64,000 nucleotides of DNA, taken from NCBI GenBank assembly GCA_963745035.1, contig CAVUVW010000025.1, positions 131,646-195,645 of the forward strand. The letters run 5' to 3'. How positions within the stretch are numbered: position 1 is the first letter of the stretch; each line of letters opens with the position of its first letter. The DNA comes from an uncultured delta proteobacterium (lineage in GTDB: Bacteria; Desulfobacterota; Binatia; UBA9968). Of the stretch, positions 6,818 through 47,532 are shown in pieces. Below the pieces are notes generated by a model that saw only the letters and a list, made by a program, of their open reading frames with translations, had not been told where the DNA came from and did not search any database. Position numbers and translations under genes: made by a program.

Positions 6818-6846
6818 ACTTCTCCGCTGCTTGTACCTTGCGCAAT

Positions 6847-6881: not shown

Positions 6882-6909
6882 CAGGAGACCACGCGGCTCA
6901 ACCGAAATA

Positions 6910-8503
6910 TTAGACAGTTCCCTTGGAAAGCTCCGCCGCGCCGTAAGGCGCGGTTGATCCCGCCATTTTCCCCGATGGGTCAACCAGAGCGGAACCGCGC
7001 GCGGCCACCGTCACGAAATCAGGATAGGCGACGTTGCCGTGCTCGCCGATATCGAGGCCTTCGATCTCTTCGTCCGCCGGCACGCGGATGCCGACGGTCG
7101 CCGCGATGATTTTCCAGAAAATCAGCGATACGGTGAAGACAAATGCGCCTACACCCACGACGCCGACAAGCTGCTTCATCAGCAGCGCCGCGCCGCCGCC
7201 GAAGAACAAACCGTTGCCGGTGGTGTTGGGCGTGAAATGATCCTGCGCGAACAATCCCACGCACAACGTGCCGAAGATACCGCAGACCAGGTGCACCGAA
7301 GTGGCGCCGACCGGATCGTCGATCTTGATCTTGTCGAAAAACAGCACCGAGACAACAACCAAAAATCCGGCGATCAAGCCGATGATGAGCGAGCTGGGAA
7401 TGCTTACGAAGGCGCAGCCGGCGGTGATCGCGACAAGCCCCGCCAGAGCGCCGTTGAGAATCATGCTGAGATCAGGCTTGCCCAAGAGCAACCATGCGGT
7501 GAGCGAAGCGGAAATGGCTGCCGCCGCTCCGGCGGTGTTGGTCGCCACGGCGATGCGTCCGATAGCGCCGGCATCCGCAGCCATGGTGCTGCCTGGATTG
7601 AAACCAAACCAGCCGAACCAGAGAACGAACACACCGAGAGTCGCCAAAGCCATGCTGTGGCCGGGAAGCGGCAAGGCTTTACCATCTTTGCTGTACTTGC
7701 CGATGCGCGGGCCGAGCACGATAATGCCCGCCAACGCGGCCCAGCCGCCCACCGAATGCACCACCGTCGAACCGGCGAAGTCGAACATGCCGAGCTTGGC
7801 CACCCAACCACCGCCCCAGATCCAGTGGCCGGTGATCGGATAGATGATGCCGACCATCAAAAAGGTGAAAATGTAGAAGGAGCCGAATTTGATGCGCTCG
7901 GCGACGGCGCCGGAGACGATGGTCGCCGCCGTGCCGGCGAAAACCAGCTGGAAGAAAAACTTCGTCCACAGCGGCACGCCCGTCCAGTTAAGCGCGGAGT
8001 ACACTCCCTTGTAGGCATCGCCCATGGCGGGACTATTGTCGGCTCCGCCGACAAACCAAAGCCCCTGAGTTCCCATGAACGCATTGCCGTCGCCGAACAT
8101 CAGTCCCCAGCCGAGCGCCAAAAAAGCCAGAGAAGAAGCCGCGAAGACGATAAAGTTCTTGGCCAAAATTGTGACGGCGTTTTTCGCTCGACAAAGGCCG
8201 GACTCGACCGTCGCGAAGCCTAGGTTCATGAAGAAGACCAACATGCCCGCGATCAAGCGTCCACATGGTGTCCATCGCTACCTTGGCGCCGCCGATCTGC
8301 TCCAATAGTCCTTGTGTGAACTGCGCCGGCGCCGCACCCGGATCTTCTTTCTTCGCTTCAGCCGCCGGCGCTGCGGCGGGCGCTTCCACTTTGGACGGCT
8401 CACTCGGCGGCGGCTCCTGCGCGCGCGCAACGCTCGTGACGAGGAATATTCCCAACAAGGCCGTCAACGACGCGAACGCTAAATATTTCTTTGCCTGCTT
8501 CAT
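6910..8503 (-). CDS. amtB: Ammonium transporter with signal peptide; frameshift near 8257
   Basis: FFQLVFA, SGAVAER, DFAGSTVVH, LWFGWFGFN, DDPVGA..VH; N-terminus in ORF 8033..8503. Confidence 0.93.
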
Positions 8504-8538
8504 TGTTTTCTCCCTCCTCGGAGTTTTGAGCTGATTTC

Positions 8539-8991
<453 letters not shown>

Positions 8992-32437: not shown

Positions 32438-33417
32438 CGGCCCTCGACCACCGCGAACAGAAATTTCTCCAGGACCATGCGGCGATTCAAGTTGCGTTGG
32501 ATGGCGGCCATTGCCGCGCCGGCCTGCGCGAGCGCCGGAAGGGCGCGAACGCCGCCCGAACGCGGGCTCTGTTGCTCAATTTGCGCCAGCATGTCGAGGT
32601 TCACCAAATCATCGCGCTCGCCGGTCACGCCGTGCACCAGCAAGTCTCGATACCAACTTTCCGCCCAGCGGAGAAACTCCAAGGCTCCTTCGCGGTCTGC
32701 GGCGAGCGGCTCCGCGGCTGCTACGGCGCCTTGATAATCGCCGCGTTTCAAATCGGCCAACATCCCGCTCCAAAACCGGCGCTTTTCGACCAACGATTGA
32801 TCGAGAGCGAGCGCCGCACCGATGCTGCCCATGCTCATCGCCCCCAAAAGCTCCGCGTCGCCGCTCTCCACGTTCCGTCTCGCCCGTAAAAAGGTCGCCA
32901 CTTGGGCTCGGGAAAGCGGCGCGAAGGAAAGCCGCAGACAACGCGAGCGCAAGGTCGGCAGGAGCTCGCCCGCATTGAACGCAATGAGGATGATCAGGGA
33001 GTTTTCCGGCGGCTCTTCCAAGGTTTTGAGCAGAGCGTTTTGCGCCGGCGCATTCATTGCTCCCGCCGCGTCCACGATCGCGATCTTGCGCCGTCCGCCG
33101 AACGAGCGGTAGCGCAGCTCGCGCTCGATTTCGCGCACTTGCTGGATGCTGATCTCCTTCTTGCCTTCGAGAGGATGAACAACTCGGACATCGGGGTGAT
33201 TGCCGTCTTTAACGCGCGCGCACTCGGCGCAGCGGCCGCAGCCGTCGCCCGTTGCCTCCGCACAGTGGACCGCCTGCGCGAGCGCCATGGCGATCGTGCG
33301 TTTGCCGATTCCTGAGGGGCCAACGAAAAGATAGGCATGGTGCAGCCGCCGGCTCGTCAGCGCCGCGCGCAGCGGCTCCAGTTGCCGGGAATGACCAATA
33401 ATTTCGCCAAAGCCCAT
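32434..33417 (-). CDS. holB: DNA polymerase III delta' subunit
   Basis: HAYLF.GP.GIGK, Zn-binding Cys, NALLKTLEEPP, SRC. Confidence 0.93.
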   Translation of the reverse strand: MGFGEIIGHSRQLEPLRAALTSRRLHHAYLFVGPSGIGKRTIAMALAQAVHCAEATGDGCGRCAECARVKDGNHPDVRVVHPLEGKKEISIQQVREIERELRYRSFGGRRKIAIVDAAGAMNAPAQNALLKTLEEPPENSLIILIAFNAGELLPTLRSRCLRLSFAPLSRAQVATFLRARRNVESGDAELLGAMSMGSIGAALALDQSLVEKRRFWSGMLADLKRGDYQGAVAAAEPLAADREGALEFLRWAESWYRDLLVHGVTGERDDLVNLDMLAQIEQQSPRSGGVRALPALAQAGAAMAAIQRNLNRRMVLEKFLFAVVEGR

Positions 33418-34053
33418 TCAGGCAAGCTCCCTACTCAGTATTTCTCGGATCTGTTCGGCTGTCTCGATCGCCGAGCGCGATGCGTCGATCACGCGAAAAC
33501 GTTCGGGCTCGGCGCGAGCCATTTCGAGAAAGCCGCTTCGGACTCTTTGATGAAACTCCAACTCCTCGCGCTCGAATCGATCTTCGCACGTCTGGCCGGT
33601 TTGATCGCGCCGCCCGGCCGCGCGCGCCAAGCCCGTTTCCACCGGACAGTCCAATAGAAGGGTCAAGTGCGGGCGCAATCCGCCGCTGGCAGTGTCGTTC
33701 AGTCGCCGCAGCCACACGAGGTCGATGCCACGACCATATCCCTGATAGGCCAGGGTTGAATCGGTAAACCGATCGCAAAGCACGATCCTACCCTCGGCCA
33801 GTGCTGGAGCGACGACTTGTTTCACATGCTGGGCCCGGTCGGCCAGGTACAAGAAAAGCTCTGTGGAAGCCGCGATCTCGCTTTCGCCCACTTCTAATAA
33901 GACCTTACGGATGAGCTTGCCGAGCGCGGTGCCACCCGGTTCGCGCGTCGTCAAACACGATTTGCTGCGTTGGCGCAAGTAGTTTTCAGCGGCGTTAACT
34001 TGCGTGGTTTTGCCGGTCCCGTCCCCGCCTTCGAACGAAATAAATTGGCTCAT
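33418..34053 (-). CDS. tmk: Thymidylate kinase
   Basis: FEGGDGTGKTTQ, REPGGT, DRF.DS..AYQG. Confidence 0.95.
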   Translation of the reverse strand: MSQFISFEGGDGTGKTTQVNAAENYLRQRSKSCLTTREPGGTALGKLIRKVLLEVGESEIAASTELFLYLADRAQHVKQVVAPALAEGRIVLCDRFTDSTLAYQGYGRGIDLVWLRRLNDTASGGLRPHLTLLLDCPVETGLARAAGRRDQTGQTCEDRFEREELEFHQRVRSGFLEMARAEPERFRVIDASRSAIETAEQIREILSRELA

Positions 34054-34152
34054 TCAGTAAAACAATGAAGAAAACCGGCAGAAGATGCAAATCACGAAAA
34101 ACGAGATCTCGATGCGAAAATGGCTGGAAGCAGTCGAGCAGACGGGCAGGGT

Positions 34153-34536
34153 TCAGGCTTTGCCTTCGCCCAAAAGCAGATTGATGCCGTTCACCAACTG
34201 GGTGCTGGTGAATGGCTTGGTGATGTAGTAATCGGCGCCGAGCTTGTAGCCGCCCAGAACGTCTTCGTATTGCACCTTGGCGGTGAGGAGAATGACGGGG
34301 ATGGTGGCCGTTTCATTTTTCCCTTTAAGCCGGGTTAAAACCTCCAGGCCATCCATTTCCGGCATCATGATGTCCAAAATGATCAGATCCGGCCTCTGGG
34401 TAGGCAGCAGGTTCAACAGTTCCGGACCGCTGGCGGCACTGAAAACAGTATAGCCGCGGCCCTCCAAAATGGTCTTGACGATCGTGATAATATCGGGGTT
34501 ATCGTCAACCACCATTATGGTCTTCTTTGTATCCAT
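34153..34536 (-). CDS. Single-domain response regulator
   Basis: VVDD, LDIMMP, LTAK, YITKPF. Confidence 0.9.
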   Translation of the reverse strand: MDTKKTIMVVDDNPDIITIVKTILEGRGYTVFSAASGPELLNLLPTQRPDLIILDIMMPEMDGLEVLTRLKGKNETATIPVILLTAKVQYEDVLGGYKLGADYYITKPFTSTQLVNGINLLLGEGKA

Positions 34537-34718
34537 GCTTGCTCCCTCTAACGCCTGATCCGTGTTCATTGTCATCTAACTAGCCTTAGAAACGAGCGCG
34601 CCGTCATGACCAAGTTAGCAGAACCGTCACGGGACTATTTGGGTTTCCAAAGCTTTGTAGATTGGGAATTTAGCATCTTGCGGCCGTCTTGTAAATTACA
34701 GTTTTCATGTCGCTCGGG

Positions 34719-35885
34719 CTATTGTGTAATGCTCCGCCAGTAATCTTGTGAAATTCCCGAAGGTAGCGATTCATAAGCAATATTAGCCGTTGCGGAAGGA
34801 ACGAGATGACTTGCCTGACTCAGTGCCCGACGGCTAAAGAGGATACGAATAGTGCCTTCAAATTCCACAATCTTCCGGCCCGCTACCGGGATGCCCGCTT
34901 CGTGCACGACCGCGGCCCCTAAAAGTTCCTTGGTATCTAATCCAATCGTCTTCAAACTCACGTCGTTTCCCGTCACCAGGACAAGCCCTAACCAGCGGAA
35001 TGCGCCGCTGAGAACCAAATCGGCATTCTTGATCACCAGGATTCCTGCGCCGGTGACGTTCCCTGCCATTGTCGCAGCATCCCCTGGGCCGGATATCCCC
35101 TCCATGCAATGCAATTGGGGCGCGGCCGGAGTGCCCCAGCTTTGGTTCTCGATCGTCAAGCCACCGCTCGATATGGCATGCACCGAGGCCGTGGCCGAGC
35201 CGCAAAGATCAGTGGCTAATTGGGTGATTAGGTCGGCGGGAAGATAGCCGCTTGTTGCTGTCGCAGGCATGTCGGCAGTCCCGTGAAGGATTCCATGCCG
35301 CGGCGGGGTTCCGAGCGCCCCCAAGACAAGCTCGCGCATTGCGTCGGCTGCGGCGGAGACCGAGCTGAGCGACTTTGCACCAGTCGCGCTGCCGGTGGCA
35401 GGATCGTGATCGGCTCCGGAAATGAAAATGGCATCGGCGTTAAGGCTGATCTGGGCGGCATTGCCCCGAAGAGCCAAGGCGGCATCGGCCAGATCGTAGG
35501 ATTTGGTCAATTGGGCGTGAACGACGTTCTGCGTGCCGTGGCTTGTGCCGGTGGAGTGAACGATCATCCGAGCGGTTAGTGGGCCGGTCATCGTTGAAGG
35601 CAGAAACGACACGGCGAATTGGCCGGTCGAAAACGGCTTGGACTGATTCGACGGCGCCGGCGGAAAGCTAGTCGCGCCGGCGATCTCGCTCTTGGCCCAT
35701 TCGACTCCGGCGACGGAAATATAGAACGCCTCCGTTCCGCCCCGAAGGTTGCTCAATACGCGAAAATCATTTTGCAACATTACTCCCGCACCGATGCCCG
35801 CGGCCATGAGCACGGACAAGAGCGTCAGGGAGTTCACCAGAACCATGCCTTGTCGACCGTAGAGAAATCCACCGCGGTGTTTCAT
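34719..35885 (-). CDS. PilX-like minor pilin with large C-terminal domain (set 1)
   Basis: G|MVLVN leader without E5, AFY...AGVEWA, terminal YWR. Confidence 0.75.
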   Translation of the reverse strand: MKHRGGFLYGRQGMVLVNSLTLLSVLMAAGIGAGVMLQNDFRVLSNLRGGTEAFYISVAGVEWAKSEIAGATSFPPAPSNQSKPFSTGQFAVSFLPSTMTGPLTARMIVHSTGTSHGTQNVVHAQLTKSYDLADAALALRGNAAQISLNADAIFISGADHDPATGSATGAKSLSSVSAAADAMRELVLGALGTPPRHGILHGTADMPATATSGYLPADLITQLATDLCGSATASVHAISSGGLTIENQSWGTPAAPQLHCMEGISGPGDAATMAGNVTGAGILVIKNADLVLSGAFRWLGLVLVTGNDVSLKTIGLDTKELLGAAVVHEAGIPVAGRKIVEFEGTIRILFSRRALSQASHLVPSATANIAYESLPSGISQDYWRSITQ

Positions 35886-35894
35886 GATCGAGAG

Positions 35895-36551
35895 TTAGTT
35901 ACGAAATTCGACGCTGCTCGAGAGCAGGGAGGTCAATTGGTCGTTGAGCTTGGGATCGGGGCTCCTTGTTTGAACCGCAAACTCGATTCGCACTCGCCTG
36001 ATGGCTTCCCGTCCCGGCACGCTGCCGAGATCGGCTCCATGAGCATCGAAAAAAGTGAAAATTTTGCCGCCGCTCGCAGGTACGACACTGGCCACTAAAC
36101 AGTCGCCGTTACGTCGTATGATATAAGGGCCCGGGCACGTGGACGTGGGTCCGGTCAGCTCGTAACGAATACTCTCGCGGGGGTCAGCGTCATTGCAGTT
36201 GCCGTTGCCGTTTAGGTCCATCTGAACGTGAATCATTCCGGTGCCGGCGGCATAGACCCGATTGCAGACCGCATCGGCGTCATTGCTCGGATCGTCGGCG
36301 CCGCCAACCTCGGGTGGCGCGCTTCCGCCGCCGTCGCCCCACGAACCCGCGTTCTTCAAATCGCGAATCATGATGTCTAAAGCGCCGCGCGCGTCTTCGA
36401 GAACACTGGTCTTCGCTTCCAGGATGAGCGTGTTGTAGAGCTCCGAACGGAAAAAGCCGTAGAGGGAAATCATCATGATCGACCCGATCAGCAACGCCGC
36501 TATTTGCTCAATGAATGTGACTCCACGTGGGCAAACGATGTACCGGATCAT
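35895..36551 (-). CDS. PilW-like minor pilin (set 1)
   Basis: G|VTFIE; AR.ALDIMIRDLKNAG; terminal FRN. Confidence 0.8.
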   Translation of the reverse strand: MIRYIVCPRGVTFIEQIAALLIGSIMMISLYGFFRSELYNTLILEAKTSVLEDARGALDIMIRDLKNAGSWGDGGGSAPPEVGGADDPSNDADAVCNRVYAAGTGMIHVQMDLNGNGNCNDADPRESIRYELTGPTSTCPGPYIIRRNGDCLVASVVPASGGKIFTFFDAHGADLGSVPGREAIRRVRIEFAVQTRSPDPKLNDQLTSLLSSSVEFRN

Positions 36552-36558
36552 TTCCCTG

Positions 36559-36993
36559 CTATTCCCCAACGAAAGTGAGGGTGGTGAGCGTCGTTTCATG
36601 GACTTCGTGATCCCGCCAAGCAACTGTAACGTCGATCTGCTTCAGGCCCGCTGCGAGATTTGAAGGCGCGATTCTCCAGCAGCGATTGAAGACTCCGGCA
36701 ACGCCCCTTTTTGCCGAGAGACCTCGATCGCCGCCATCAGGGCAAAGATTGACATCCGCCAATGGCCGGTGCGCCTGCAACTCCTCCATTTTGTCTTGGG
36801 CCAGGTTAATTGCCACCGTTGCATTATCGCTCACGACCTGGCGGCGAATGAGATGAAGGCTGGTCACAGAAGTACTCACGACAACAAACGTCACGAGGCC
36901 TATGGTCACTAGAAGTTCATTGAAAGTGAAACCGTCGTCTCCGCCATGGCGCATATACGATCTCGTCCTTTGCGTCAGCAGTCCTCCGCGCAA
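36559..36993 (-). CDS. PilV-like minor pilin (set 1)
   Basis: G|FTFNE; A.NLAQDKMEEL; LKQIDVTVAW; start uncertain. Confidence 0.8.
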   Translation of the reverse strand: MRGGLLTQRTRSYMRHGGDDGFTFNELLVTIGLVTFVVVSTSVTSLHLIRRQVVSDNATVAINLAQDKMEELQAHRPLADVNLCPDGGDRGLSAKRGVAGVFNRCWRIAPSNLAAGLKQIDVTVAWRDHEVHETTLTTLTFVGE

Positions 36994-37421
36994 CTTGTCG
37001 GCGTACAGATCCTGATCCTCCCCGTTGAGCTTACGACGACTTGCTTACACGCTCCCATCTCGCTGCGCAGCCGCACCCTGTTTCCGCTCGCCGTGCCGCG
37101 TGGCGAGAGCAATATCGTGCCTTCTTTGGTAATGATGGTTTTGCCCGATAAAGGCTTGGTGACCAGAGTCTGAGAATCTCTCTGAATCGTGTAACTGTTC
37201 GCCCCCGCCGTGTACGCGAGCTGGAATCCTACTTTCTCGGCGGCGGCGCGCATCTTGATATTGTGGAGTTCGGATTGTACCTGACGCACGGCGCTGTCCA
37301 GGTGAACGGAAGGTAAAAGCTTGCTCCAGCCGGGAAATGCGATCGCCGCGATAATTGCCATCAGCGCCAAGGCGCCGAGTACTTCGAGCAGAGAAAATCC
37401 GTGCTGGTCCGTGTAGCCCAT
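36975..37421 (-). CDS. FimT/FimU (GspH-like) minor pilin (set 1)
   Basis: G|FSLLE; V.STGRIR C-terminus; GGAGG RBS. Confidence 0.82.
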   Translation of the reverse strand: MGYTDQHGFSLLEVLGALALMAIIAAIAFPGWSKLLPSVHLDSAVRQVQSELHNIKMRAAAEKVGFQLAYTAGANSYTIQRDSQTLVTKPLSGKTIITKEGTILLSPRGTASGNRVRLRSEMGACKQVVVSSTGRIRICTPTSCAEDC

Positions 37422-37438
37422 AGCTCCTCCGGGGGCGG

Positions 37439-37466
37439 ACAATACTCGTCCGTTAAAGATTGTCAA
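37439..37466 (-). promoter_or_regulatory. Sigma70-type promoter of pilin set 1
   Basis: TTGACA-N16-TATTGT. Confidence 0.55.
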
Positions 37467-37775
37467 TAGCAGAATGCAGAGGCGGGTTTTCAGTCCTGCC
37501 ATGTGGGACACCGCCCAGTCTGCGATCGGCCTCAGGCGGGCGGATCGGGGACTATCCCCATGGGGGAAGTCCGAGACACCGGAAACTACTTCTGGACACT
37601 CGCGAAAAGAAGATATGCAGGCTGTAGCGAAATTAGATCCGCAATGAGGGTGGGTTATGAAAAGGACATCGGGTATGTAAGTTCATACCCGTCTTTACTG
37701 GCGCCGCCGCGCCGTCGTCGACACGACGTTTAACGCCGATTTTCGCGCGGCGCATATTGTATCTGTCACTCAAGG

Positions 37776-38656
37776 TTAGAAGATATCTCGCCAGCTTTCC
37801 GGCACCATCTTCGCGGTCGACGTGCCGCAAGCCGCATGAGTACAGTTGACCGAGCAGCCGTACGTTATTTTGGAATTTCCTGAAAATGATGAGAGGTCAA
37901 AGTGGTTATTACCGCTGGTGGCGTTCGGAGAACGGATCGCCGGTCCAGGTGGGACTGCCGTTGCCGATCTGGATAAATCCGTTGAGATTGGGATTGCCGC
38001 TCACGCCGATCTGCTGATGGACCAGAATCGCGCCCTCGTGACCGACCATGCCGATGTTGCCGCTTATTTAAGATCATTGCCCGATGACGACATGGAATAA
38101 TAGTTGCAGGTCCGGATCGCTTGCTGGGTTGAAGGGTTTACCGATGGATTGCCGCTCCACTCAACCGAGTCCCGGGCGATGGATGGTCGATTGCCAAGGC
38201 GTACTGGTCGTTCCTGGATTGCCGCTGATGGTTACGTGTGTTTCAGCATAGAATATCCCGTCTGCTGCGCTATTGCCGGATACCTTCCAGCTAGTCCCAT
38301 CCCACTCCCAGCCTGCGGGTTTGGTCACTTCCGTTCGCGTGCAAGTTTGGTTCCACACGTCGCACCAACGGTAACTTTGCCGTCACTATTCAGGATGTAT
38401 CCTTTGTTGGCCAAGCCCAGTTTAGCGATTACGCTGGGCGAAGTCGGCCGGGTTGATCGCGGGTACCGGCCTATTGGGTTGGTTCTGATTGGCGGCCTCG
38501 TAGGCGTTCCTCTCACCGTTGGAGTCGTACCCGTACGGCGATGGATGTGATTCGGTGGCGCAACTCGCATGGCCGACGCCAGGGTTACCGGAAACAACAT
38601 CCATGGTTCCGGAGCTGCGCCCCGGGATTTCCGCTGATGTCACCGTTGGTATGGAG
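37776..38656 (-). pseudogene. Orphan PilX-like C-terminal domain (long copy), frameshifted, no prepilin N-terminus
   Basis: Stitched frames LHTNGDISGNP...ADGIFYAETHVTISGNPG...GAILVHQQIGVSGNP...KITYGC...ESWRDIF*. Confidence 0.65.
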
Positions 38657-38718
38657 AGAATTTTCTGACTCGTGGGTACGCGGCTAGGGCGAAGCTCATT
38701 GCGGAGCGGAGAGTCTAG

Positions 38719-39123
38719 CTAGCGGGTCATCGCCTCGCCAGCATAGTTCAGTGATAGATATCGGCGCGCTACCTCTTGAAACGTTTTCAAGGGAGTGGGC
38801 TTGTGTAATATCTCCGAAGCTCCGGCTGCGATAGCACGCTCCACCTGCACTGCCCCATGGGAAAAGGCGGTATTGACGACCACCGGGATGTGTCTCGTGG
38901 ATTCGTCTGCTTTAAGCCGCGCCGTTGCTTCATCTCCTGTCATTCCCGGTAACCCGAGATCCATAAAAATGAGGTCGGGACGCTTCGCATGGACTTGTTC
39001 TATAGCATCGAGACCGGTGGCCGCTTCGGCAATCTCGTACCCCGAACGCCTGAGAATAAGCGCCAGCAAATTGCGGGAGTCACGGTCATCTTCGACCACG
39101 AGAATCCTCTTTGTGGCAGCCAT
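38719..39123 (-). CDS. Single-domain response regulator (CheY/DivK-like)
   Basis: VVEDD, MDLGLPG, TAF, KP. Confidence 0.88.
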   Translation of the reverse strand: MAATKRILVVEDDRDSRNLLALILRRSGYEIAEAATGLDAIEQVHAKRPDLIFMDLGLPGMTGDEATARLKADESTRHIPVVVNTAFSHGAVQVERAIAAGASEILHKPTPLKTFQEVARRYLSLNYAGEAMTR

Positions 39124-39285
39124 GGCGTTTCTAGTACGCACGAATGATGCCCGCCGTGATCCATCGGTCCGTGCGCGCGATGAAGGGGATCGCCTGGCGG
39201 GTTTAGGACGTTTTTGCCCCCACATGGACAATATGGGAGCCAGTGTCGGTGCGCGGTGTTCGACTAATATTGACCACGGCAGGAC

Positions 39286-39480
39286 CTAAACGAGCGGCAA
39301 TTGTCCCGGCCGGCAGTAGCCCGGCGGGAGCGGCTTGATACATGCCGGAGAGTCGTTCTCGGGCGCATTCACGAAGTTCGATACATCATGCGCTTGCATC
39401 TGCTCTGCCGGCCACGGTCGTAGCAACGATGGAGCGCCATTGTAGTGCTCAAGCCAGGCGCGGGAATCGGCGGCGCAACG
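39286..39480 (-). pseudogene. C-terminal fragment of an SOS response-associated peptidase (SRAP/YedK-like)
   Basis: AWL....LLRPWPAEQMQAH.VS.FVN.PENDSP.CI. Confidence 0.65.
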
Positions 39481-39809
39481 GTAATACGTTGGTGGTTCAA
39501 AGGAGGACAACAGGGCCAAGCCACCCTACCTAGGCAAGCGCGTTGAAGTCAAAATTCTCACTGACATGTACAAGATTCGCCGACCCTTATTCGCGCCACT
39601 AGCGGACACCTGCGAAAAATGGCACGCGAGTGGGCGTGGCAGTTGATTGAACTCAACGCCCGCGTTTTTCGCCATGCGTTGTGGATTGCAGTTATCGGCT
39701 GGCGTGGATCGTGATTAAAGGCAAACGTTTTTTAGCCGGAAAGAGCCACTGGGCCAATGTGAAAGGAATCTAACCGTCGATCCGGAAGCGTACCCTGTAA
39801 CTATCATTG

Positions 39810-40181
39810 TTAATGAGCTTGAAACGGTGGCTGCGAGATGACGGCTTGCCACGCACACTGCGCCGGTGTCATTTCCCTGATCTTCTGTCGAAGCTCTATC
39901 AGGACCAATTGCTTCTGATTTTCCTCGCGTAGCGACACGTTTGAGTATTCTTCGAGGTTCTTCACAAAGCGGTCGTAATCCTTTGCCGGGAACGTTTTAT
40001 GGGCTACTTCTTTCAACAACTCCACGTCGGCTTGGTGATGCTTTTCCGCCAATCGGTTATGATGATCTTTTTGTCTGACGATCAAGATTTCGCACGGGTG
40101 CACCGCGCCAAAGAACAGCCACGTCGACGATACATACCCCAGGATTACGATAACAAGGATCGTTAGGGTTTTGACGGTCAT
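39810..40181 (-). CDS. Hypothetical membrane-anchored protein
   Basis: N-terminal TM segment, PC...C pair. Confidence 0.6.
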   Translation of the reverse strand: MTVKTLTILVIVILGYVSSTWLFFGAVHPCEILIVRQKDHHNRLAEKHHQADVELLKEVAHKTFPAKDYDRFVKNLEEYSNVSLREENQKQLVLIELRQKIREMTPAQCAWQAVISQPPFQAH

Positions 40182-40460
40182 AGGACTAGGACTTGGTGCA
40201 AACTAGCTCCTCGCAGGCGGTTATTATGGAATCTTGGGGCGACAATGTCTACTTTTTTGGATATCTACCGGGAAGCTGCTTGGTTCGTTAAGAGTCGCGG
40301 ATTGTATGAGAAATCGCGGAATGCTTCGGCGATAAATGCCGCGTGCGCCTCTGGCAACACGCTGTTACCCCACTACCAGACACTCCGCTGCCTTGTGCTG
40401 CTGGATTGTGCGACCATTCCAGCAAAACGATTGCCTTGACAAGCTAGTATCGGGCGTACG

Positions 40461-40736
40461 ATGATTCGCGGCATGTGGAAAAGAGTGCTTGCCGCACTGA
40501 TCCTTCTCGGCTGGATCAGCCTTTCAGGTTTCGACGTTGTTGAAGACCTGGACGAAGTACCTGGCCAAAGTCAGCTTTCGGAACCGCTTCCGAACAACAC
40601 CATCGAGTCGGCGAGCCGAACCAAAGCGCCTACGATTGAGGCGGTCACCTTTTCACCGATCATTTTTTACTATCTGCGTCCTGCCGAGTTTCGCAAACAC
40701 TCCCTTCATAAACTTTTTCACGTTTTTCTGATCTAG
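40461..40736 (+). CDS. Small hypothetical protein with hydrophobic N-terminus
   Basis: MWKRVLAALILLGWISLSG...LHKLFHVFLI. Confidence 0.5.
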   Translation: MIRGMWKRVLAALILLGWISLSGFDVVEDLDEVPGQSQLSEPLPNNTIESASRTKAPTIEAVTFSPIIFYYLRPAEFRKHSLHKLFHVFLI

Positions 40737-41614
40737 AAAGCGGTTCCTGCATATTTCTTTCCGGTGCCGGCATTAACCTATGCCGTGCATTCCTATTTTA
40801 TTACGCGAGAATGAGTTTGGCTTTGCCCCGGACTCAATGGAGAAACCATCGTGGAAGATTTCCCCATTTGGCTAAAGTTGCTGGTGTGGCTGGTTATTGG
40901 GGGTACAGTGGTGTACGCAGCCAGCGCAGCAATCTTGAATGCAATCAGTGGGTAAGTGCCGGTGATCAGCTCGGTGCTGTACTTGTTTATCGAATTTTCC
41001 CGCTCGACTAGCTCTGTACGCGCTCATCGAGGGACTCATAGGCCCTGCGGCGCTTGAGCTGGTGCGCGTAGCGGAGGCTACGGAGCCTGTATATATCATC
41101 TCAGTGATGTTGCTCCTATGAGCCGGTATCTGCGTTGCTTTCGCGTTTAACACTTTCCGGTTGGAGGACTCTGTCGTGCATAAGATCGAAGGGGAGATCG
41201 CGCTCCTGATCGCGACGGTGGCGATCGTCGGTGTGGGCATCATCGAGGCGGTGAAGAAAAAGCGGCAAGGGCGAGCAAAAAGATTGAATGTACGTCCACG
41301 ACCCGACGATCGAGCGGCTTTACAAGGGCTACCGACTCGGGGGCAGCGCGGAAAGCGTGCACAACGATTCGAAGAGTTGGTTTGCGGTGGGCATGTGACG
41401 CTCTGTATGCCGTGCCATTCGGTTCTCGATACGGTGAAAGAGAGCATCTTACGGAGCGACGATCCCGCCGTCGCCGCGTGGATCGTCTTTTCCTCGCCGA
41501 AACCTCCGTCGATCACCTCATCCTGCCGCCGCAGTATTTTTTGACACACCTAGTACATGGCAAAGTCGTCAAGCATGCGCGCAGAACCCCGTCGGCTTTG
41601 TTTTTCACGAAGCC

Positions 41615-41970
41615 TTAGAAGACGTCCCGCCAGCTCCCCGGCACCATCTTCGCGGTCGACATGTCGCAAGCCACATGAGTACAGTTGACCGAGCAGCCGT
41701 AGGTTATTTTGGAATTTCCTGAAAATGATGAGAGGTCAAAGTAGTTCTTACCGCTGGTGGCGCTCGGAAACGGATCGCCGGTCCAGGTCGGGCTGCCATT
41801 GCCGATCTGGATAAGTCCGTGGAAGTAGGGATTGCCGCTCACGCCGATCTGCTGATGAACCAGGATCGCGCCTTCTTGGCCGGCCATGCCAATATTGCCG
41901 CTTATTTTAGGTCGTTTACCGTGGCGACATGATTATGCTGCAGGTTCGGACCGGCTGCGGGTTAAAGGCA
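41615..41970 (-). pseudogene. Orphan PilX-like C-terminal fragment (short copy); direct repeat of about 37776-38135
   Basis: EGAILVHQQIGVSGNP...KITYGC...GSWRDVF*; roughly 85-90% nt identity to the long copy by eye. Confidence 0.7.
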
Positions 41971-42079
41971 TGGTGCAGTTCAGGGCCTGTCAAGAACTGT
42001 CGCCTCTTTCATCGATAAAAACTAAATTTGACCCAGCGAGATTCGGTGATAAAATGCGATTTTATTAGACGGAGTCACG

Positions 42080-42631
42080 ATGCGAAAAATGGTAGCGGTA
42101 TTATTCCTGTGGATCACCACCGGCCTGGAGGTGACCGATGCCGCGTATATCATTAAGCTCAAAAACGGCAATGAATATTTAACGGAAAGTTACTGGCAGG
42201 AAGGTAGCCAGGTACTATTCAATACATACGGCGGAATATTTGGTGTCGACAAAACGTTCATCGCCAAAATTGAGAAATCCCTTCAAACCAGTCGAATCGC
42301 TTCCGCCAAAGATCCAGTTGGCGCTCGGACTAACGCAGAGATTCAGAATAAGGATTCCGCCGATCCTACGCCTGGATCTAAACCGAAGGCTGAAAAAAAG
42401 CGCGATCCTAATGATCCAGTTGTGAGCGAATACAATCGATTGAGGGATAGAGCAAGAGAAGTCAACGGGCTGTTGACAAGTGAGATCCGCGAGCTTTTAA
42501 AAGAAATTACAGCTTTTAAGAACAAGCTTTCGCGCGACAGCAAGCTATTTATAGAGTACGGACGAGAATTCAATGGCGCCCATGAAATCGGAGACACTGT
42601 GGAATCTGCGTTGCGATCGCGCACTCAGTAG
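42080..42631 (+). CDS. Secreted hypothetical protein
   Basis: Signal peptide; IKLKNG...YW.EG..V.F...GG; helical C-terminus. Confidence 0.7.
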   Translation: MRKMVAVLFLWITTGLEVTDAAYIIKLKNGNEYLTESYWQEGSQVLFNTYGGIFGVDKTFIAKIEKSLQTSRIASAKDPVGARTNAEIQNKDSADPTPGSKPKAEKKRDPNDPVVSEYNRLRDRAREVNGLLTSEIRELLKEITAFKNKLSRDSKLFIEYGREFNGAHEIGDTVESALRSRTQ

Positions 42632-43785
42632 TCTTGCTTCCAATTCACAACCTTAAGCGGCTGGCTCGATAAAGCTTTCTTTACATTACAGCTATTGTAC
42701 CCAATGGTAATGCTGCCGCTAATCGCCGTGTCTCCCAGCGCGGAGCTGCCGCTGTAGATTTGACCCTGGATATTTTTGGCATTTGAACCTCCGCCGGAGG
42801 ACTTAAGAATTCCGGTCACGATGATAATCCCGTTCCAGTTTGTATCGCCGGCGAGTTCCAAATTTCCCTTGACCAGAAGAATTCCGTAACCATTCACGTT
42901 ATTGAGCTTCAGCTCCCCGTCGGCTTGAGTACCGGCGGCATCAGCATATACCGTCACAAAATTGGTTGCGCTCCCGAAAGTGGAATTCGATGAATCCGAT
43001 GTAAGCGTATGGTTCGCGCTTCCTTTAAGCATGTCCACATACCCTTGCAGATCGATATCAATAGTTCCATTCTGCGGCGCGGCCGGATTGCCGGACAGAC
43101 TGGGGCTACCGTTTGTCGTGGTTGTGGCCGGATCTTTGGTGTAGACCGATGCTAAGTTTCCACCAGCGCACGAGCTACCGTCATTGCCGTTGACACTGAT
43201 CGAAGTACCACTAAGAGTAACGTTGTCCTTTGAGTAAATGACTGCGGGACTGCTCGTCGAAAATGAATAGAGTTGCACGGTGGTTTGCACGATTGCCTTG
43301 GTGTTCCCGGGACCCGTTGCCACCGATGTAATCATTACTTTGCCGTTGTTGTCGGTGGTACTCGACGAACCCTCGCTTGCATCGTTTGTCAAATAGGCCG
43401 TGTAAATGTATCCAGGGACGAAGGTACTTGAAGAGGTGAGCGCCGAATCATCAGTCGACGATGTGTAGCCGTTGAGCACGCCGTTGGCGCCTACCTGTGC
43501 GGCGAGCTCCTCGCTGAAATTGGCTGAGTTTGTGCTCGACACATTAGCAGCTCTAAGCGTTTGACGGGCCTGCTCCGCGCCGGCCATCGCCACCTGCAGT
43601 GCTTTTTGATTCGTTTGGAAGTTAGCGCCGATTTTCACGTCGGTCGATGCCACGATGAAAGCCGTGGCCCCTACAAGGGTCAGCGCCGCCAGAAGAGTCA
43701 GAGCAGCGATTAGAATGACGCCCGACTCACTATTCTTAAGCATGTCGCCCGTGCGGCCTTGATCGTTTCGCGGAAAGTTCTTCAC
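42625..43785 (-). CDS. PilX-like minor pilin with large C-terminal domain (set 2)
   Basis: G|VILIA without E5; ALQVAMAGAEQA; terminal NWKQ; start may be 43743. Confidence 0.8.
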   Translation of the reverse strand: MKNFPRNDQGRTGDMLKNSESGVILIAALTLLAALTLVGATAFIVASTDVKIGANFQTNQKALQVAMAGAEQARQTLRAANVSSTNSANFSEELAAQVGANGVLNGYTSSTDDSALTSSSTFVPGYIYTAYLTNDASEGSSSTTDNNGKVMITSVATGPGNTKAIVQTTVQLYSFSTSSPAVIYSKDNVTLSGTSISVNGNDGSSCAGGNLASVYTKDPATTTTNGSPSLSGNPAAPQNGTIDIDLQGYVDMLKGSANHTLTSDSSNSTFGSATNFVTVYADAAGTQADGELKLNNVNGYGILLVKGNLELAGDTNWNGIIIVTGILKSSGGGSNAKNIQGQIYSGSSALGDTAISGSITIGYNSCNVKKALSSQPLKVVNWKQDY

Positions 43786-43798
43786 CTAAAACTCCTCG

Positions 43799-44404
43799 CT
43801 ACAGAGACAGATTTGGCGGAGTTACGTCAGCAGTTATCTGATACGTTCTATAGCCGTTATTGGTTGGGTAACTGGGGTCTGGATTTGCTGTCCGCGCGGT
43901 CATGTTGATAGTTACCCTTCTCACTGCAGTGTTCGTCGTAGTTGACGCGCCGTTGGCATCCAAATACGTAAATGCGAATGCTGTAATATTGTCTGCAAGG
44001 GTGGCACTTGACGCTGAATTATTCAGAGTTCTGGTTATGACACCCGTAGAGTTGTCAAAAACGTACGAAATGTCGTCATTCGTTCCATCCGTTTCGACGC
44101 CGGACGAATCAAGATCAATCTTTATCCGTAACGTCGTCGCTGTTGATGTGTGTATGCCGTTGAAGGAGCCACCCGCTGGCTTGTAACCTGCCATCTGGAT
44201 TTCACGGATCATCAGATCCAAAGCAGCGCGGACATTTTGTTGCATCTGGCCAATTTGTTCTTCAGCATTGTTCTGCCGGTTCTGAAGAGTAAACGAGCCG
44301 GCGATTGCTGCAAGAATTACCAAACTGATGGTCATCGAGACCATCAGCTCGATAAGCGTAAAACCCTTGCTTTCTTCGACCATTCTCGATGACAATTGAC
44401 TCAT
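43799..44404 (-). CDS. PilW-like minor pilin (set 2)
   Basis: G|FTLIEL; MQQNVRAALDLMIREIQMAGY. Confidence 0.85.
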   Translation of the reverse strand: MSQLSSRMVEESKGFTLIELMVSMTISLVILAAIAGSFTLQNRQNNAEEQIGQMQQNVRAALDLMIREIQMAGYKPAGGSFNGIHTSTATTLRIKIDLDSSGVETDGTNDDISYVFDNSTGVITRTLNNSASSATLADNITAFAFTYLDANGASTTTNTAVRRVTINMTARTANPDPSYPTNNGYRTYQITADVTPPNLSL

Positions 44405-44832
44405 GATGCCGCCATTATAGTTTTCAGCGTAACGGATTTTGTTCCCACTGCACCTTCGGACCAAGTGAGAATGACCGTAAGAGTCTTAATGTTTGTTACG
44501 GATGTGTCGATGGCGAGATTCCGCGTAAACGTAACTCCACCGGAAACCACTGTTGCGTTTCCTGTAATACAATTATTAGCGCCGCCCGATGGAACAGATC
44601 CTGCACTTGAGTAACCCACCCGACGATTTTCCTCAAAACACGACTGCGCGATCGCCGTCGCGGTCGTAACGTTCCTAGCGGCTACGTTGCCACGCACGAC
44701 CCCCGTCGTTAACACAGCCGTACCAAGTAAGCCAATCGTTAACAAAACGAGAGCCGTGAGCATCTCTATGAAAGTAAATCCGCTCTCCTCTCCGTTGATG
44801 CTTCCAACGAGAATCTTTGACGAGTTCATCAT
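44401..44832 (-). CDS. PilV-like minor pilin (set 2)
   Basis: G|FTFIEM; KTLTVILTW. Confidence 0.82.
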   Translation of the reverse strand: MMNSSKILVGSINGEESGFTFIEMLTALVLLTIGLLGTAVLTTGVVRGNVAARNVTTATAIAQSCFEENRRVGYSSAGSVPSGGANNCITGNATVVSGGVTFTRNLAIDTSVTNIKTLTVILTWSEGAVGTKSVTLKTIMAAS

Positions 44833-45275
44833 CAGCTGATACTCGCTGAGCCGGTAATTCTCACCGTGACAGTTTTGCTTCCGGCTGGATTGCTTAAAGT
44901 AATTGTTGGAGCAACACTAGCGGTTCCTCGCGAGGAAAACGTTATTGTTGTGGCCGTCGATGTGAGCGTGACGTCAGAGTACTCTGTCTGAATGTTGACT
45001 GTCTTGGTCGTAGAACCCGCGATCTGCATGGTTTGATTAGTGGGGAATGTGACTACGTATGCGCTGTTCTCGTTAACGGCTTTCGATCTTGCCCACATGA
45101 GTTCACTGTAAATCTGGCGGGCGGCGCCGTTGAGTCGGTTTTTTGGACGGAACGCAACGAACTGCGGAACCGCGACAGCTGAAAGCAACCCGAAAATCAC
45201 GACAGCGACCAAAACCTCGGCGAGACTAAATCCACGTTGGCTCACAAGACGACGTCGATACATGCAATCAAACAT
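44832..45275 (-). CDS. FimT/FimU (GspH-like) minor pilin (set 2)
   Basis: G|FSLAE; AARQIYSELMWARSKAV; ITFSSRG. Confidence 0.82.
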   Translation of the reverse strand: MFDCMYRRRLVSQRGFSLAEVLVAVVIFGLLSAVAVPQFVAFRPKNRLNGAARQIYSELMWARSKAVNENSAYVVTFPTNQTMQIAGSTTKTVNIQTEYSDVTLTSTATTITFSSRGTASVAPTITLSNPAGSKTVTVRITGSASIS

Positions 45276-45508
45276 AACGTGACCACCAAAACGTATCGAA
45301 ATTGGTTTAAACACGTGCCTGAAACTCGGAACCTGCCAAGGACGACCGGTTAAAGTGCAATTCGCGCACCATGCAAGGCGCACGGCAAAGGGCTATTGCC
45401 TGCGAAGAATATGTATGGGCAGGGGCAAGAACTTACCAGAAGTTCTCACGCACAATACAGTCAATATGTGACAGGGTGACGAAAAATGTAAATTTTGTGG
45501 AACTGGTG

Positions 45509-46298
45509 TCAAACCGCCCGCAAGTAAAATTGAATGAGCGCGTCGCCAAAAAAGATGAACAATACGGCGCCTGAGCACAGGAATGGGGCAAAGGGTAAGG
45601 CCAGCCGTCGGCCCGCGCCGGTGAGAAGCATACAAGTCAGCCCGACAACCGAACCGATCAAAGAAGCAATGAACAAAGTGAAGGGGACCGACGGCCAGCC
45701 CAGAAACGCTCCGATCATGGCCAGCAGCTTGATATCACCACCACCCATGCCATCGACGCCTGTAATTTTCTCGTAAAGCCATGCCGTCGTAAGTAGAAAG
45801 CCGCCGCCCGCGATCATGCCAATGAGTGAACTCAAAGGGGACGGAAGCAAATCACCCTCGCCGCCGATGACGAAATAGCCCGCCACCGACAGCACCAGTC
45901 CGCAGATGATTCCGGGCAAGCTGATCACGTCCGGAACGATACGCACGTCGAGATCAATAAATGAAATCACAATCAGCGCAGCGATGAACACAAAGCCAAC
46001 GAAAAACTCAAAACCAAGCCCAAACTGATAATACAACGCGAGCGCCATCACTCCCATGAGCAACTCGACAAGAAAATAGCGCGGCGAAATCGGCTGCGAG
46101 CAAGTACGGCAACGGCCGCGCAGAAAGACATAGCTGAGCAGCGGTATGTTACAGTAAAAAGGAATCGCCAGCCTTGCATTTCGGACAATGAGACGGCGGA
46201 TGAACAACCGACTCGTCATTGGGGATCCTGCCGATGCAGACGTTGAGAAAACTGCCGACGATGGCGCCGAGGATAAAAATTACAAATGGGAGGAGCAT
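45509..46298 (-). CDS. pilD: Prepilin peptidase/N-methyltransferase; frameshift near 46170
   Basis: [37 protein letters not shown]. Confidence 0.9.
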
Positions 46299-46641
46299 GT
46301 TATTGTCGTAAGTTTTTTACTAACCGCGACGAATATTGAGGAATCTCGCACACTACACGACCACTCGCCAATCTTTGCAACAGGAAGCGTTCAAAAGATT
46401 TTTCCTGACCTTCGAAAAGCGATCGCGGAGCGAGAAATCCTCGCGATCACATCCAACAGCCTACAAGACGTTTTCAACGCGTACGCCCTCATTCGCCTGA
46501 CGGCGCACGCGCAAACCGATGGAAAAATTGGCTAACTCCATTTTATCGTGATCTAACCAACCATGCAGCTGGATTGATGAAACTGAAGCACACGTATGCT
46601 ATCGCGGGACTCTAATGCAGGATCAATTCTCATTGTGATAG

Positions 46642-47532
46642 CTACAACCAATCTCCGAGCCGCCAGGAATAACCAGCCTCCTTCATGAACTTTCGGGTAC
46701 TCCGCCAGACTTTGTACTTCTCATAAATCGACAAGTCCGACTTCCAGACCTCGGGTCTGGCTCTGCCAATGAAACCGCGAGGCAGCTTCGCCACTTGTCC
46801 CATGCATGCCCTGACCTCGCCGTATACCGGTATCGGGGTGCCGCCACTTTCCATTACCACGGCCTTGTTATTCTCGATTGCAACATTTATGGCATCGTCG
46901 CTCCACGAGAGGTCGAGGAATTTCGCCAGGCCGTTCAGCGTGTCGAGTGGAGATTTCCAAAGATCTTCATAGCGGATCTCGCGAAATTCTTGAGGAGATA
47001 GGTTTTTTGCCGCAACCTTAGCTGCGTCCACGTGCTGCGCCCACATGGCCGCAGCAAGTTCCACGCTGCTCGGCGCCCAGCTCGCGCCCCAACCTTGCGA
47101 AGCAGTCATCAGCGATGCGACCACGTCTCGACAATCGCGTACCAGGTGAATGAACCGGCTGTCGGGCAACAGTTGCTTAATCTCTGGAATGTATAATGCG
47201 TGTGATGGGGTCTTCTCCAGAAACCATTCGTCCGGCTGTAAATCATTGATTGCGGGTTTGAGCAAAGCCGCTAGGTAGTTTTTCAGAATGGCGAGAAATT
47301 CTTCCTCGCGGAAATAGGCCGGCGGACCCGCCGCATGACCCATTCCGCCATTGAAGTGTCGCGTCTTCTGGTCGTTCCACGAACGGAGCTGAGGCCCGAC
47401 ATATAAGCTGAAAAAGTGCGACTCTTCCCCGGAGCGAACTTTTGGATGACTGGCCAAAAGCTTTTGAAGCCATGTCGTGCCGCTGCGCGGGCAGCCGACA
47501 AGAAACACTATATTCTTGCCCGTGTACTCCAT
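46642..47532 (-). CDS. Sulfotransferase
   Basis: GCPRSGTT (5'-PSB), EKTP, RD.RDVVAS (3'-PB), RYEDL. Confidence 0.9.
   Translation of the reverse strand: MEYTGKNIVFLVGCPRSGTTWLQKLLASHPKVRSGEESHFFSLYVGPQLRSWNDQKTRHFNGGMGHAAGPPAYFREEEFLAILKNYLAALLKPAINDLQPDEWFLEKTPSHALYIPEIKQLLPDSRFIHLVRDCRDVVASLMTASQGWGASWAPSSVELAAAMWAQHVDAAKVAAKNLSPQEFREIRYEDLWKSPLDTLNGLAKFLDLSWSDDAINVAIENNKAVVMESGGTPIPVYGEVRACMGQVAKLPRGFIGRARPEVWKSDLSIYEKYKVWRSTRKFMKEAGYSWRLGDWL

Follow-up and report, generated by a model that had tools for sequence, protein, structure and literature searches.

In the pilE/pilS antigenic variation system of Neisseria, promoterless and N-terminally truncated copies of a pilin gene lie on one strand near pilus genes. 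In the R64 shufflon, the Rci recombinase switches the C-termini of the PilV tip adhesin, and at cdiA/rhs loci displaced C-terminal modules lie as orphans behind the full-length gene. For ComZ of Thermus thermophilus, the nearest folds are GspK and FfIBP, and a place at the pilus tip is argued in its description (PMC6561018). Here we describe two 5'-truncated gene fragments, cassettes A and B, in a window of 64,000 nucleotides from an uncultured member of the Binatia, and conclude that they are probably non-functional pseudogene relics of one more PilX-like minor-pilin gene, of a class with proteins of ~470 aa. Among the papers listed in a search on minor pilins, PilX and pseudogenes, no title or abstract dealt with such fragments.

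Both cassettes lie on the minus strand in the ~4.6 kb between fimT1 and orf183 (37512..42079), together with a copied segment and small ORFs that have weak paralogues on contigs C13, C17, C19 and C20. On one side is minor-pilin set 1 (34719..37511, minus strand), comprising fimT1 (36975-37511), pilV1 (36559-36993), pilW1 (35895-36623) and pilX1 (34719-35885, 388 aa). On the other is orf183 (42080..42631, plus strand), which has no family match and adjoins pilX2 in genus relatives, with 57-58% amino acid identity. It is followed by minor-pilin set 2 (42625..45383, minus strand), with pilX2 (42625-43785, 386 aa), pilW2 (43799-44464), pilV2 (44401-44832) and fimT2 (44832-45383), and by a prepilin peptidase gene (45509-46219). 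Cassette A runs from 38659 to 37776 (884 nt; it can also be bounded as 37776..38657) and is the 5'-truncated 3' part of a ComZ/PilX-like minor-pilin gene. Its roughly 295 codons are the counterpart of residues ~167-471 of P0001, an intact relative; they open at SLHTNG and end in SWRDIF and a TAA stop codon (37778-37776). Cassette B, a shorter 3' fragment (~41968 to 41615, ~355 nt), corresponds to P0001 residues ~357-471 and ends in SWRDVF and a TAA stop codon (41617-41615). Its 5' end fades gradually, its final 98 codons share one frame, and it contains a 90-aa ORF (41887 to 41615), which is P0007 in the protein collection. An earlier note, made from the DNA letters, had described two same-strand copies of about 880 and 355 bp, the longer opening at an HTNG motif, with SWRD[I/V]F ends and 85-90% identity by eye; this description holds throughout, the identity by blastn being 86.9% over 360 columns (37776-38135 against 41615-41968, E 5e-117).

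A repeat search divided this alignment into two blocks with a one-base offset between them, 37776-37929 against 41615-41768 (92%) and 37931-38083 against 41769-41921 (86%). The homology between A and B ends exactly at the stop codon, as does that between A and its closest DNA relative, in genome G068. Neither a protein search (next match E 0.4) nor blastn found a third copy in the 7.4 Mb genome. Within their last 95 codons, A and B show 28 differences, distributed 6/6/16 by codon position, and the change is synonymous in 13 of the 26 differing codons. The NG86 dN/dS is 0.25 (Fisher p 7e-4), and the third-position excess had p 0.006-0.023 in neutral simulations. This purifying-selection footprint indicates that much of the A-B divergence arose under protein-level constraint, since a duplicated dead gene would not yield such a ratio, and it bears out the earlier reading of the many synonymous differences as past selection for protein. 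The low ratio would go back to a time at which the precursors of A and B still belonged to working genes or alleles.

Neither copy is able to make a pilin, because each lacks both a start codon and an N-terminal helix. With intact relatives as queries, tblastn matched C-terminal residues only, reaching P0001 at ~167-471 (A) and ~357-471 (B), in agreement with the reported lack of a prepilin N-terminus; the hydrophobic N-terminal helix with the PilX_N signature is found in neither cassette, and Pfam matched no family on the 98 aa of cassette B. In the present assembly, frame-aware alignment placed seven frameshifts in cassette A, at 38430 (+1), 38344 (-1), 38181 (+1), 38140 (-1), 38085 (+1), 38065 (-1) and 37929 (+1), and an additional break at ~38616, between the HTNG piece and SSGTM. 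The corrected frames contain no stop codon and share 78% amino acid identity with P0002 (213 of 273 aligned codons). Cassette B has one frameshift, with degenerate, stop-containing sequence upstream of a missing A nucleotide. That both copies are one A short between DLK and ISG (38065/66 in cassette A, 41903 in cassette B) had been reported before and is true of the present assembly, but the deletion is not fixed in cassette A: contigs from three other studies restore the A at place 38066. In cassette B the A is also missing in run X6, which aligns there without gaps over 41665-42200.

Intact proteins of this class are encoded elsewhere. The query pieces share 67-74% identity with P0001 (471 aa) and P0004 (487 aa), which carry PF14341 (PilX_N), so that the domain is joined to PilX N-termini in these proteins and the initial assignment of the fragments as PilX-like C-termini stands. 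The partial protein P0002 (343 aa) shares 76% identity with B and 88% with the searched piece of A (54 aa), and among 5.8 billion proteins no intact gene was nearer to either. P0002 was matched in 14 of 122 other genomes of the order, mostly in open frames of 470-529 aa, and the full-length pilX genes with such a C-terminus that the earlier note had proposed to look for in relatives were found as 20 full-length ORFs that open with a hydrophobic N-terminal helix. In the sister genera (G106, G100, L013) the full-length relative is the fourth gene, after fimT-pilV-pilW and before RR1-tmk; the cassettes do not occupy this position, both being intergenic between two operons. The closest DNA relative, G068:C741, has two frameshifts and lies outside any pilin operon; its surroundings lack pilin genes, and the ORF upstream looks TPR-like in translation.

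We further characterized the class through a structural model. The AlphaFold model of P0001 (pLDDT 86.1) consists of an N-terminal pilin module followed by a beta-solenoid, of which the cassettes span a part. Foldseek ranked ComZ (6qvi, E 3.3e-7, probability 1.0) as the top PDB match, followed by ice-binding beta-helices. Intact relatives thus appear to resemble ComZ in their N-terminal hydrophobic helix, GspK-like pilin domain and large, predicted beta-solenoid similar to ice-binding proteins, whereas sequence identity is 12-13%, the whole-chain TM-score is 0.26-0.30, and the window holds headless fragments but no ComZ-like gene. Like the PilX/GspK core minor pilins of type IVa pili and type II secretion, the class has PF14341 and, in the sister genera, the fourth-gene position; the N-terminal part that defines these proteins is missing from the fragments, and the C-terminal ~300 residues of the class matched no Pfam or NCBIfam family. 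The N-terminus of P0001 gave a weak match to the GspK model NF037980 (E 1e-4, 21.9 bits, cut-off 130). This uncharacterised family of ~470-aa minor pilins in the PilX position, with a ComZ-like beta-solenoid, is common in the order, and its occurrence in 14 of 122 genomes, often as the fourth minor-pilin operon gene, suggests that ComZ-type tip proteins occur well outside Thermus. Since the tip-gene slot is held by the 470-aa class or by the 388-aa class in sister genera, the pilus tip appears to be evolutionarily changeable in this group.

The present genome contains no full-length gene of the cassette class, as a protein search with B found only A and B. Comparison of 37300-42200 with the genome (blastn, word size 11, E 1e-3) revealed no DNA common to the cassettes and pilX1 or pilX2, and hhalign linked the ~470-aa class to pilX1 and pilX2 solely via the N-terminal residues ~1-155/166, a region that the cassettes lack. 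Thus, neither copy can donate to an expressed gene here, there being no recipient with common DNA. An evolutionary C-module swap was also considered and rejected: an N-module tree (25 rows, 139 columns), to which a long-branch warning applies, showed no discordance, with the rows of the ~470-aa class (X470) on one side of a branch (82/90) and pilX1 on a long branch outside.

The location of the cassettes is lineage-specific. In G006 and G015, the two genus relatives studied in detail, the order is tmk-RR1-pilX1-pilW1-pilV1-fimT1, a short spacer and orf183-pilX2-pilW2-pilV2-fimT2-pilD, the spacer measuring 149 bp in G006 and the matches lying ~100 bp apart in G015. P0002 was unmatched at E ≤ 1e-5 in all 30 genomes of the genus, and no genus DNA match fell inside either cassette among the matches listed. 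Next to cassette A lies the copied segment (38658..39456, minus strand), with a response-regulator gene (38719-39231, Pfam Response_reg) and an ORF fragment (39286-39519). The segment is 97.9% identical to positions 91080-91880 of contig C14 of the same genome, with 17 differences in 801 columns; 10 of these lie beyond 39423, and the 0.77 kb up to that point is ~99% identical. The left edge of this C14-like copy coincides exactly with the 5' end of cassette A, at 38657/38658. The C14 locus holds a longer form of the neighbouring ORF, and neither this form nor the fragment 39286-39519 matched Pfam or NCBIfam; the idea that the fragment is a piece of an SOS-response peptidase (SRAP) found no support in these databases and was dropped. 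No signs of a mobile element were seen: scans found neither tRNAs (25000-55000) nor Rfam families (33000-47000), and there were no terminal inverted repeats and no recombinase domain in the 17 ORFs scanned (34.7-46.2 kb). The only inverted repeats found were a palindrome at 37549-37572 and an 18-nt pair at 38582/38938. A target duplication or exact insertion breakpoints were sought by comparing the G006 and G015 spacers with both flanks, and were rejected, as no sequence was shared between the flanks; a ~25-nt promoter-proximal match was found on the orf183 side only.

The stretch or part of it is held by 20 runs in 7 studies, and contigs from these runs bridge every junction. The 3' end of cassette A is bridged in X1 (37300-37828) and X6 (37300-37855), its junction with the copied segment in X6 (38038-38838) and X1 (37876-38698), the 3' end of cassette B in X1 (40630-41660) and X6 (41399-41694), and the 5' side of B to orf183 in X6 (41665-42200) and X12 (41717-42200). 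Parts of X1 and X2 outside contig cover (39432-40415 and beyond) were not scored as absence. Cassette A varies among these samples. X1 differs from the present assembly at 28 letters and 14 gap positions in 823 nt of the cassette, in comparison to 2 differences in 529 nt of one flank and 1 plus one gap in 1030 nt of another. X1, X6 and X12 carry an opposite indel at or near five of the seven frameshift sites (37930, 38066, 38084, 38145 and 38174). At codon 38236-38238, the present assembly encodes H and X1/X6 encode P, as in the FYAETPV of P0001-P0003, and at codon 38122-38124 it encodes A, in contrast to P in X1/X6/X12. This variation far exceeds what neutral decay in place would give, which indicates either recombination with a divergent allele or consensus errors in the assembly.

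The cassettes had initially been viewed as silent donors or displaced tips of a pilus-tip diversification system. Such promoterless C-terminal stores would recombine into an expressed pilX, as in pilE/pilS, and both cassettes are likewise promoterless, N-terminally truncated, on one strand and near pilus genes. Cassette A opens ~10 residues past the end of the N-module common to pilX1 and pilX2 and runs from this module boundary to the stop codon, so that it equals the variable C-module and looks like a true cassette; its site between two minor-pilin operons, the A-B dN/dS and strain differences far above those of the flanks point the same way. In contrast to Neisseria, the genome has no expression locus for this class, the cassettes have no tracts in common with pilX1 or pilX2, they number only two and are of a single type, one of them is heavily frameshifted, the class is unmatched in the 30 other genomes of the genus, and nothing in the N-module tree suggests that pilX1 arose from an X470 gene by a tail swap. 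Neither pilX/cassette joints nor a deletion form between the repeats, both envisaged by the earlier note, occurred in the contigs of 4 runs from 4 studies, although contigs drop rare variants. For the present genome the silent-donor reading is therefore largely refuted and highly unlikely, and a pilS-like donor role is unsupported. The shufflon likewise stores alternative C-terminal segments of a pilus-tip protein beside the gene, whereas A and B are direct repeats with no flanking inverted repeat of at least 16 nt and no recombinase among the scanned ORFs. As in cdiA/rhs orphan modules, the 3' ends of genes are displaced, the 5' parts are missing and the homology stops with the stop codon; the analogy with orphan toxin modules fails in that the cassettes do not lie downstream of a full-length family gene, A being upstream of fimT1 and B on the far side of a conserved gene of the opposite strand, and they have no junction motif in common with the resident pilX genes, which share N-module protein similarity only. 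That the repeat is a chimeric join or collapsed repeat of a metagenome-assembled genome might be suspected from a completeness of 92.6%, a contamination of 5.8%, the segment 98% identical to another contig, and an indel-rich difference of A that could partly be consensus error. With contigs of at least two other studies running across each of the four junctions, flanks that match apart from 1 gap in 1030 nt, and most of the seven frameshift sites outside long homopolymers (by eye), such an artefact is extremely improbable.

Two readings give the strain variation of cassette A more weight. The fragments may recombine with intact genes of the ~470-aa class in co-occurring strains or species, the locus being a landing pad caught here in a dead state. 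The A variants nearer the family consensus at 38236-38238, 38122-38124 and 38066, an A-B divergence like that between working alleles, and the presence of the gene in unrelated contexts (G068) would fit. We nevertheless regard this as unlikely, since the nearest intact gene is only 76% identical to B and 88% over the 54-aa piece of A, every strain contig extending to the 5' edge shows the truncation seen here, and X1 appears still to carry an unbalanced +1 at 38160 among the indels listed. In a live form, the beta-solenoid module would be exchanged by homologous recombination between strains or species, with the resident fragments as anchors. This traffic would fit the exact match of A to the variable module, the dN/dS of 0.25, and sister-strain A copies that lack several frameshifts within near-identical flanks, yet we consider it quite improbable. 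Should the strain differences in A stem from recombination with functional alleles, the locus would offer a natural example of how tip modules turn over in soil bacteria. The 90-codon tail, in B and in A of other strains, might instead be a small gene in its own right: its frame is intact in B, gene calls in other assemblies include ORFs of equal length (B-type P0005, 91% identical; A-type P0006 and the cluster member P0008), so that a small product might be expressed, dN/dS is low, and A-B identity drops sharply upstream of the ATG region. This is very unlikely, as no Shine-Dalgarno-like motif was seen by eye within 20 bases upstream of the 41887 ATG, neither a signal peptide nor a membrane helix is apparent in the sequence, a frameshift interrupts the A version at 37929 in the present assembly, its M is a conserved internal residue in P0001-P0004, no holder run is recorded as RNA, and in the model the tail forms the last few beta-solenoid rungs, which would probably not fold alone.

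The relic reading therefore remains the probable one. A gene of the ~470-aa class, acquired or retained, would once have stood in the divergent intergenic region between the minor-pilin operons; a partial duplication of its 3' end would have given copy B, copy A would have lost its 5' part where the 0.77 kb piece from another chromosomal locus now sits, and the frameshifts in copy A would have accumulated afterwards. We infer this order of events (gene present, duplication, 5' loss, frameshifts) from the present arrangement. The simple decay offered earlier as an equal possibility is the closest of the original readings, but the word simple does not quite fit a rearranged, lineage-specific patchwork with a strain-variable copy A. 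As gene debris, the locus would have little bearing on the workings of the organism.

Several observations stand beside this account. The dN/dS of 0.25, the homology end at the stop codon and the strain-variable frameshifts are not accounted for by plain decay. The start of cassette A, though module-like, is fixed by the copied segment, which is recent. As a source of the shared missing A nucleotide, gene conversion of cassette A by B was considered and rejected. Cassette A of the present assembly equals B at five of eight strain-differing substitution sites, and four of these five also equal the outgroup G068. The stretch around the shared missing A is where the two cassettes differ most.

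Every pilin-set, prepilin peptidase and fragment gene considered here lies on the minus strand, with orf183 (42080-42631) on the plus strand. The prepilin peptidase gene (46219 to 45509) is directly followed by minor-pilin set 2 (fimT2, pilV2, pilW2 and pilX2; 45383 to 42625). Minor-pilin set 1 (fimT1, pilV1, pilW1 and pilX1; 37511 to 34719) is followed by a response regulator (RR1), tmk, holB and metG. Pfam backs the N-methyl, GspH, PilX_N (weak) and peptidase A24 assignments at this locus. Between the sets, an insert of 4.57 kb, reaching from the start of fimT1 (37511) to orf183, holds two fragments of a PilX-like gene, copy A (37776-38659) and copy B (41615 to about 41968). We consider it probable that A and B are what is left of a ComZ/PilX-like tip-pilin gene, without its 5' part and partly frameshifted, in a rearranged, lineage-specific stretch.

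The presence of two fragments, as read in the earlier note, was confirmed. A repeat search matched 37776-37929 to 41615-41768 (92%) and 37931-38083 to 41769-41921 (86%), and blastn aligned A with B at 86.9% identity over 360 columns (E 5e-117). The homology stops exactly at both TAA stop codons. A protein search and blastn of the 7.4 Mb, 28-contig genome (G000) found no third copy. We aligned both copies, allowing for frameshifts, against two longer relatives, P0002 and P0001. A spans P0001 residues 190-471, plus an SLHTNG piece at residues 167-186, and matches P0002 with 78% identity (213 of 273 codons). It carries seven frameshifts (38430, 38344, 38181, 38140, 38085, 38065 and 37929) and an additional break with a deletion near 38616; its corrected frames are free of stop codons. 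The frameshifts alternate strictly between +1 and -1 from 38430 to 37929, such that only two frames are used, a pattern with a chance of about 1 in 64 for randomly drawn signs. B spans P0001 residues 357-471 with a single frameshift (41903), upstream of which its real frame has stops. A start codon and an N-terminal helix are absent from both.

The fragment structure is real. All or part of the stretch is contained in 20 runs from 7 studies (soil, rhizosphere and winery metagenomes), and contigs from runs X1, X6 and X12 span the A 3' end, the junction of A with the copied segment described below, the B 3' end and the B 5' side. Among contigs of 4 runs from 4 studies, none joined the two repeats over the intervening 3.8 kb, though rare forms could escape contigs.

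A protein-collection search with the 98 in-frame codons of B retrieved three longer proteins: P0001 (471 aa, PF14341 PilX_N; 74% identical to B), P0002 (343 aa, partial; 76% identical to B and 88% to a 54-aa piece of A) and P0003 (221 aa, named by NCBI as a Candidatus Binatia MAG protein; 72% identical to B). The 54-aa piece of A also retrieved P0004 (487 aa, PF14341). P0002 has matches in 14 of 122 other genomes of the order, a tally that takes in the unpublished genome G005, and these are mostly open frames of 470-529 aa, a class that we call X470; it has none in 30 genomes of the same genus (E<=1e-5). A metagenome-contig scan added 12 loci at 36-44% identity. All 20 extracted full-length ORFs have a hydrophobic N-terminal helix and a W-x-x-x-F type tail. 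In the AlphaFold model of P0001 (pLDDT 86.1, pTM 0.74; alignment of 19 sequences), a long helix at the N-terminus leads into a small sheet, beyond which short strands wind into a solenoid. The top PDB match of the model is Thermus ComZ (6qvi; E 3.3e-7, probability 1.0), with a whole-chain TM-score of just 0.26-0.30; ice-binding beta-helices rank next. According to the ComZ paper, a beta-solenoid similar to the ice-binding protein FfIBP is inserted into a GspK-like pilin domain, and the authors make a case for a location at the pilus tip (PMC6561018). The likeness to ComZ concerns the predicted fold of the intact relative P0001. The P0001 N-terminus also has a weak GspK match, far under the curated cut-off.

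In two relatives of the same genus (G006 and G015), the genes tmk-RR1-pilX1-pilW1-pilV1-fimT1 are separated by a short spacer (149 bp in G006) from orf183-pilX2-pilW2-pilV2-fimT2-pilD. A 12.9 kb DNA query against the genus genomes matched sets 1 and 2 and skipped query positions ~3960 to 8737. By these comparisons, the insert location is peculiar to the G000 lineage. Further insert pieces have weak paralogs on contigs C13, C17, C19 and C20 of the same genome, and 40459-40625, where a 91-aa membrane-like ORF begins, is 80-85% identical to G000:C19:30044-30258. Searches for tRNAs, Rfam families and terminal inverted repeats found nothing at the insert, which therefore bears no mark of a known mobile-element kind.

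The 5' edge of A adjoins a copied segment (38658-39456) that is 97.9% identical to G000:C14:91080-91880 (L050 5081-5881), with 7 differences in 766 nt up to 39423 (about 99%). Since the C14 copy carries a response regulator and a longer adjoining ORF, of which the window copy has only part, C14 is the likely source; the ORFs beside it read as TadE/TadG-like from their N-termini alone. The junction (38657/38658) falls inside the codon preceding LHTNG. A protein search with intact relatives did not find the N-terminal part of the gene beyond the far side of the segment, indicating that the 5' part was replaced, not merely interrupted. A starts about 10 residues past the end of the sole region common to pilX1/pilX2 and the X470 class (hhalign probability 97.5% for residues 1-145 and 95.8% for residues 2-158). 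Because its edge was set by a recent copy, we treat this match to a module boundary as a coincidence (roughly 4% by position).

The earlier note had proposed silent pilS-like donors or tips displaced by C-terminal swapping, or simple decay. A donor role is unsupported, and impossible in G000, which has no recipient gene. Decay is the nearest reading, with a possible part for allele exchange between strains; plain decay leaves the selection footprint and the strain differences in A unaccounted for. Alignment of the copies, suggested in the earlier note, gave a dN/dS of 0.25 over the last 95 codons (Sd 14 on 63.7 sites, Nd 14 on 221.3 sites; Fisher p 7e-4). The 28 differing sites are distributed 6/6/16 by codon position, a third-position excess (p 0.006 with uniform mutation, 0.016-0.023 with G/C sites mutating 2-3 times faster). 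Polarized by the G068 copy, a distant outgroup, a hand count placed 8 synonymous and 7 non-synonymous changes on the B branch, and 2 and 5 on the A branch.

Relative to G000, copy A of X1 shows 28 letter changes and 14 gap positions over 823 nt, and that of X6 shows 15 and 26 over 783 nt. The differences in the flanks are 2 in 529 and 1 (plus one gap) in 1030 for X1 and about 0.8-0.9% for X6. Among the listed indels, those at or beside five of the seven G000 frameshifts (37930, 38066, 38084, 38145 and 38174) have the opposite sign. On our reading of these indels, X1 retains an unbalanced +1 at 38160, so copy A may not be open there. A-type 90-aa ORFs in other assemblies (P0006 and P0008) are in frame through the 37929 site, and another assembly holds a B-type 90-aa ORF (P0005; 91% identical). 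The single missing nucleotide (an A) reported for both copies is indeed shared in G000, but copy A has it in X1, X6 and X12; copy B of X6, gap-free over 41665-42200, retains the loss. At overlap substitutions, G000 A agrees with B at 5 of 8 sites and with G068 at 4 of those 5, so the derived letters there are carried by the other strains; at the indels, G000 is the derived side. This is most simply explained if a divergent allele of the fragment entered one lineage by homologous recombination. Consensus errors in the G000 assembly could also produce differences in A, a lesser possibility given that indels hardly differ in the flanks.

The fragments form a separate sub-group of X470 with P0001, P0002, P0004 and the G068 copy (L056, G068:C741, 1453-2893). 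The latter, their closest DNA relative, is full-length, has two frameshifts, one near 1690 and one near 2160-2200, and adjoins an ORF read as TPR-like, not pilin genes; its homology to A likewise stops at the stop codon. In other genera of the family (G106, L051; G100, L052) and a metagenome locus (L013), X470 is the fourth gene of a set-1-type operon, fimT-pilV-pilW-X470-RR1-tmk, and it sits ~4 kb ahead of RR1-tmk in G029, L018 and L009. The fourth slot in the genus of G000 is occupied by the 388-aa pilX1 (34719-35885), whose tail is unrelated to X470. Genera within one family thus have different kinds of fourth set-1 gene, and RR1 and tmk follow either kind. An N-module tree puts pilX1 outside the X470 group and so does not support a tail-only swap at pilX1. 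In G029 (L007 1-1455, minus strand) and G031 (L006 1835-2503, plus strand), the next ORF after X470 is much larger and likewise begins with a PilX-like helix; it exceeds 485 aa, runs off the locus end and is possibly a second tip protein. Pfam and NCBIfam searches gave no matches for orf183. In the genus relatives (57-58% amino acid identity) it keeps its head-to-head orientation to fimT1 and its tail-to-tail orientation to pilX2, and so may be part of the pilus locus.
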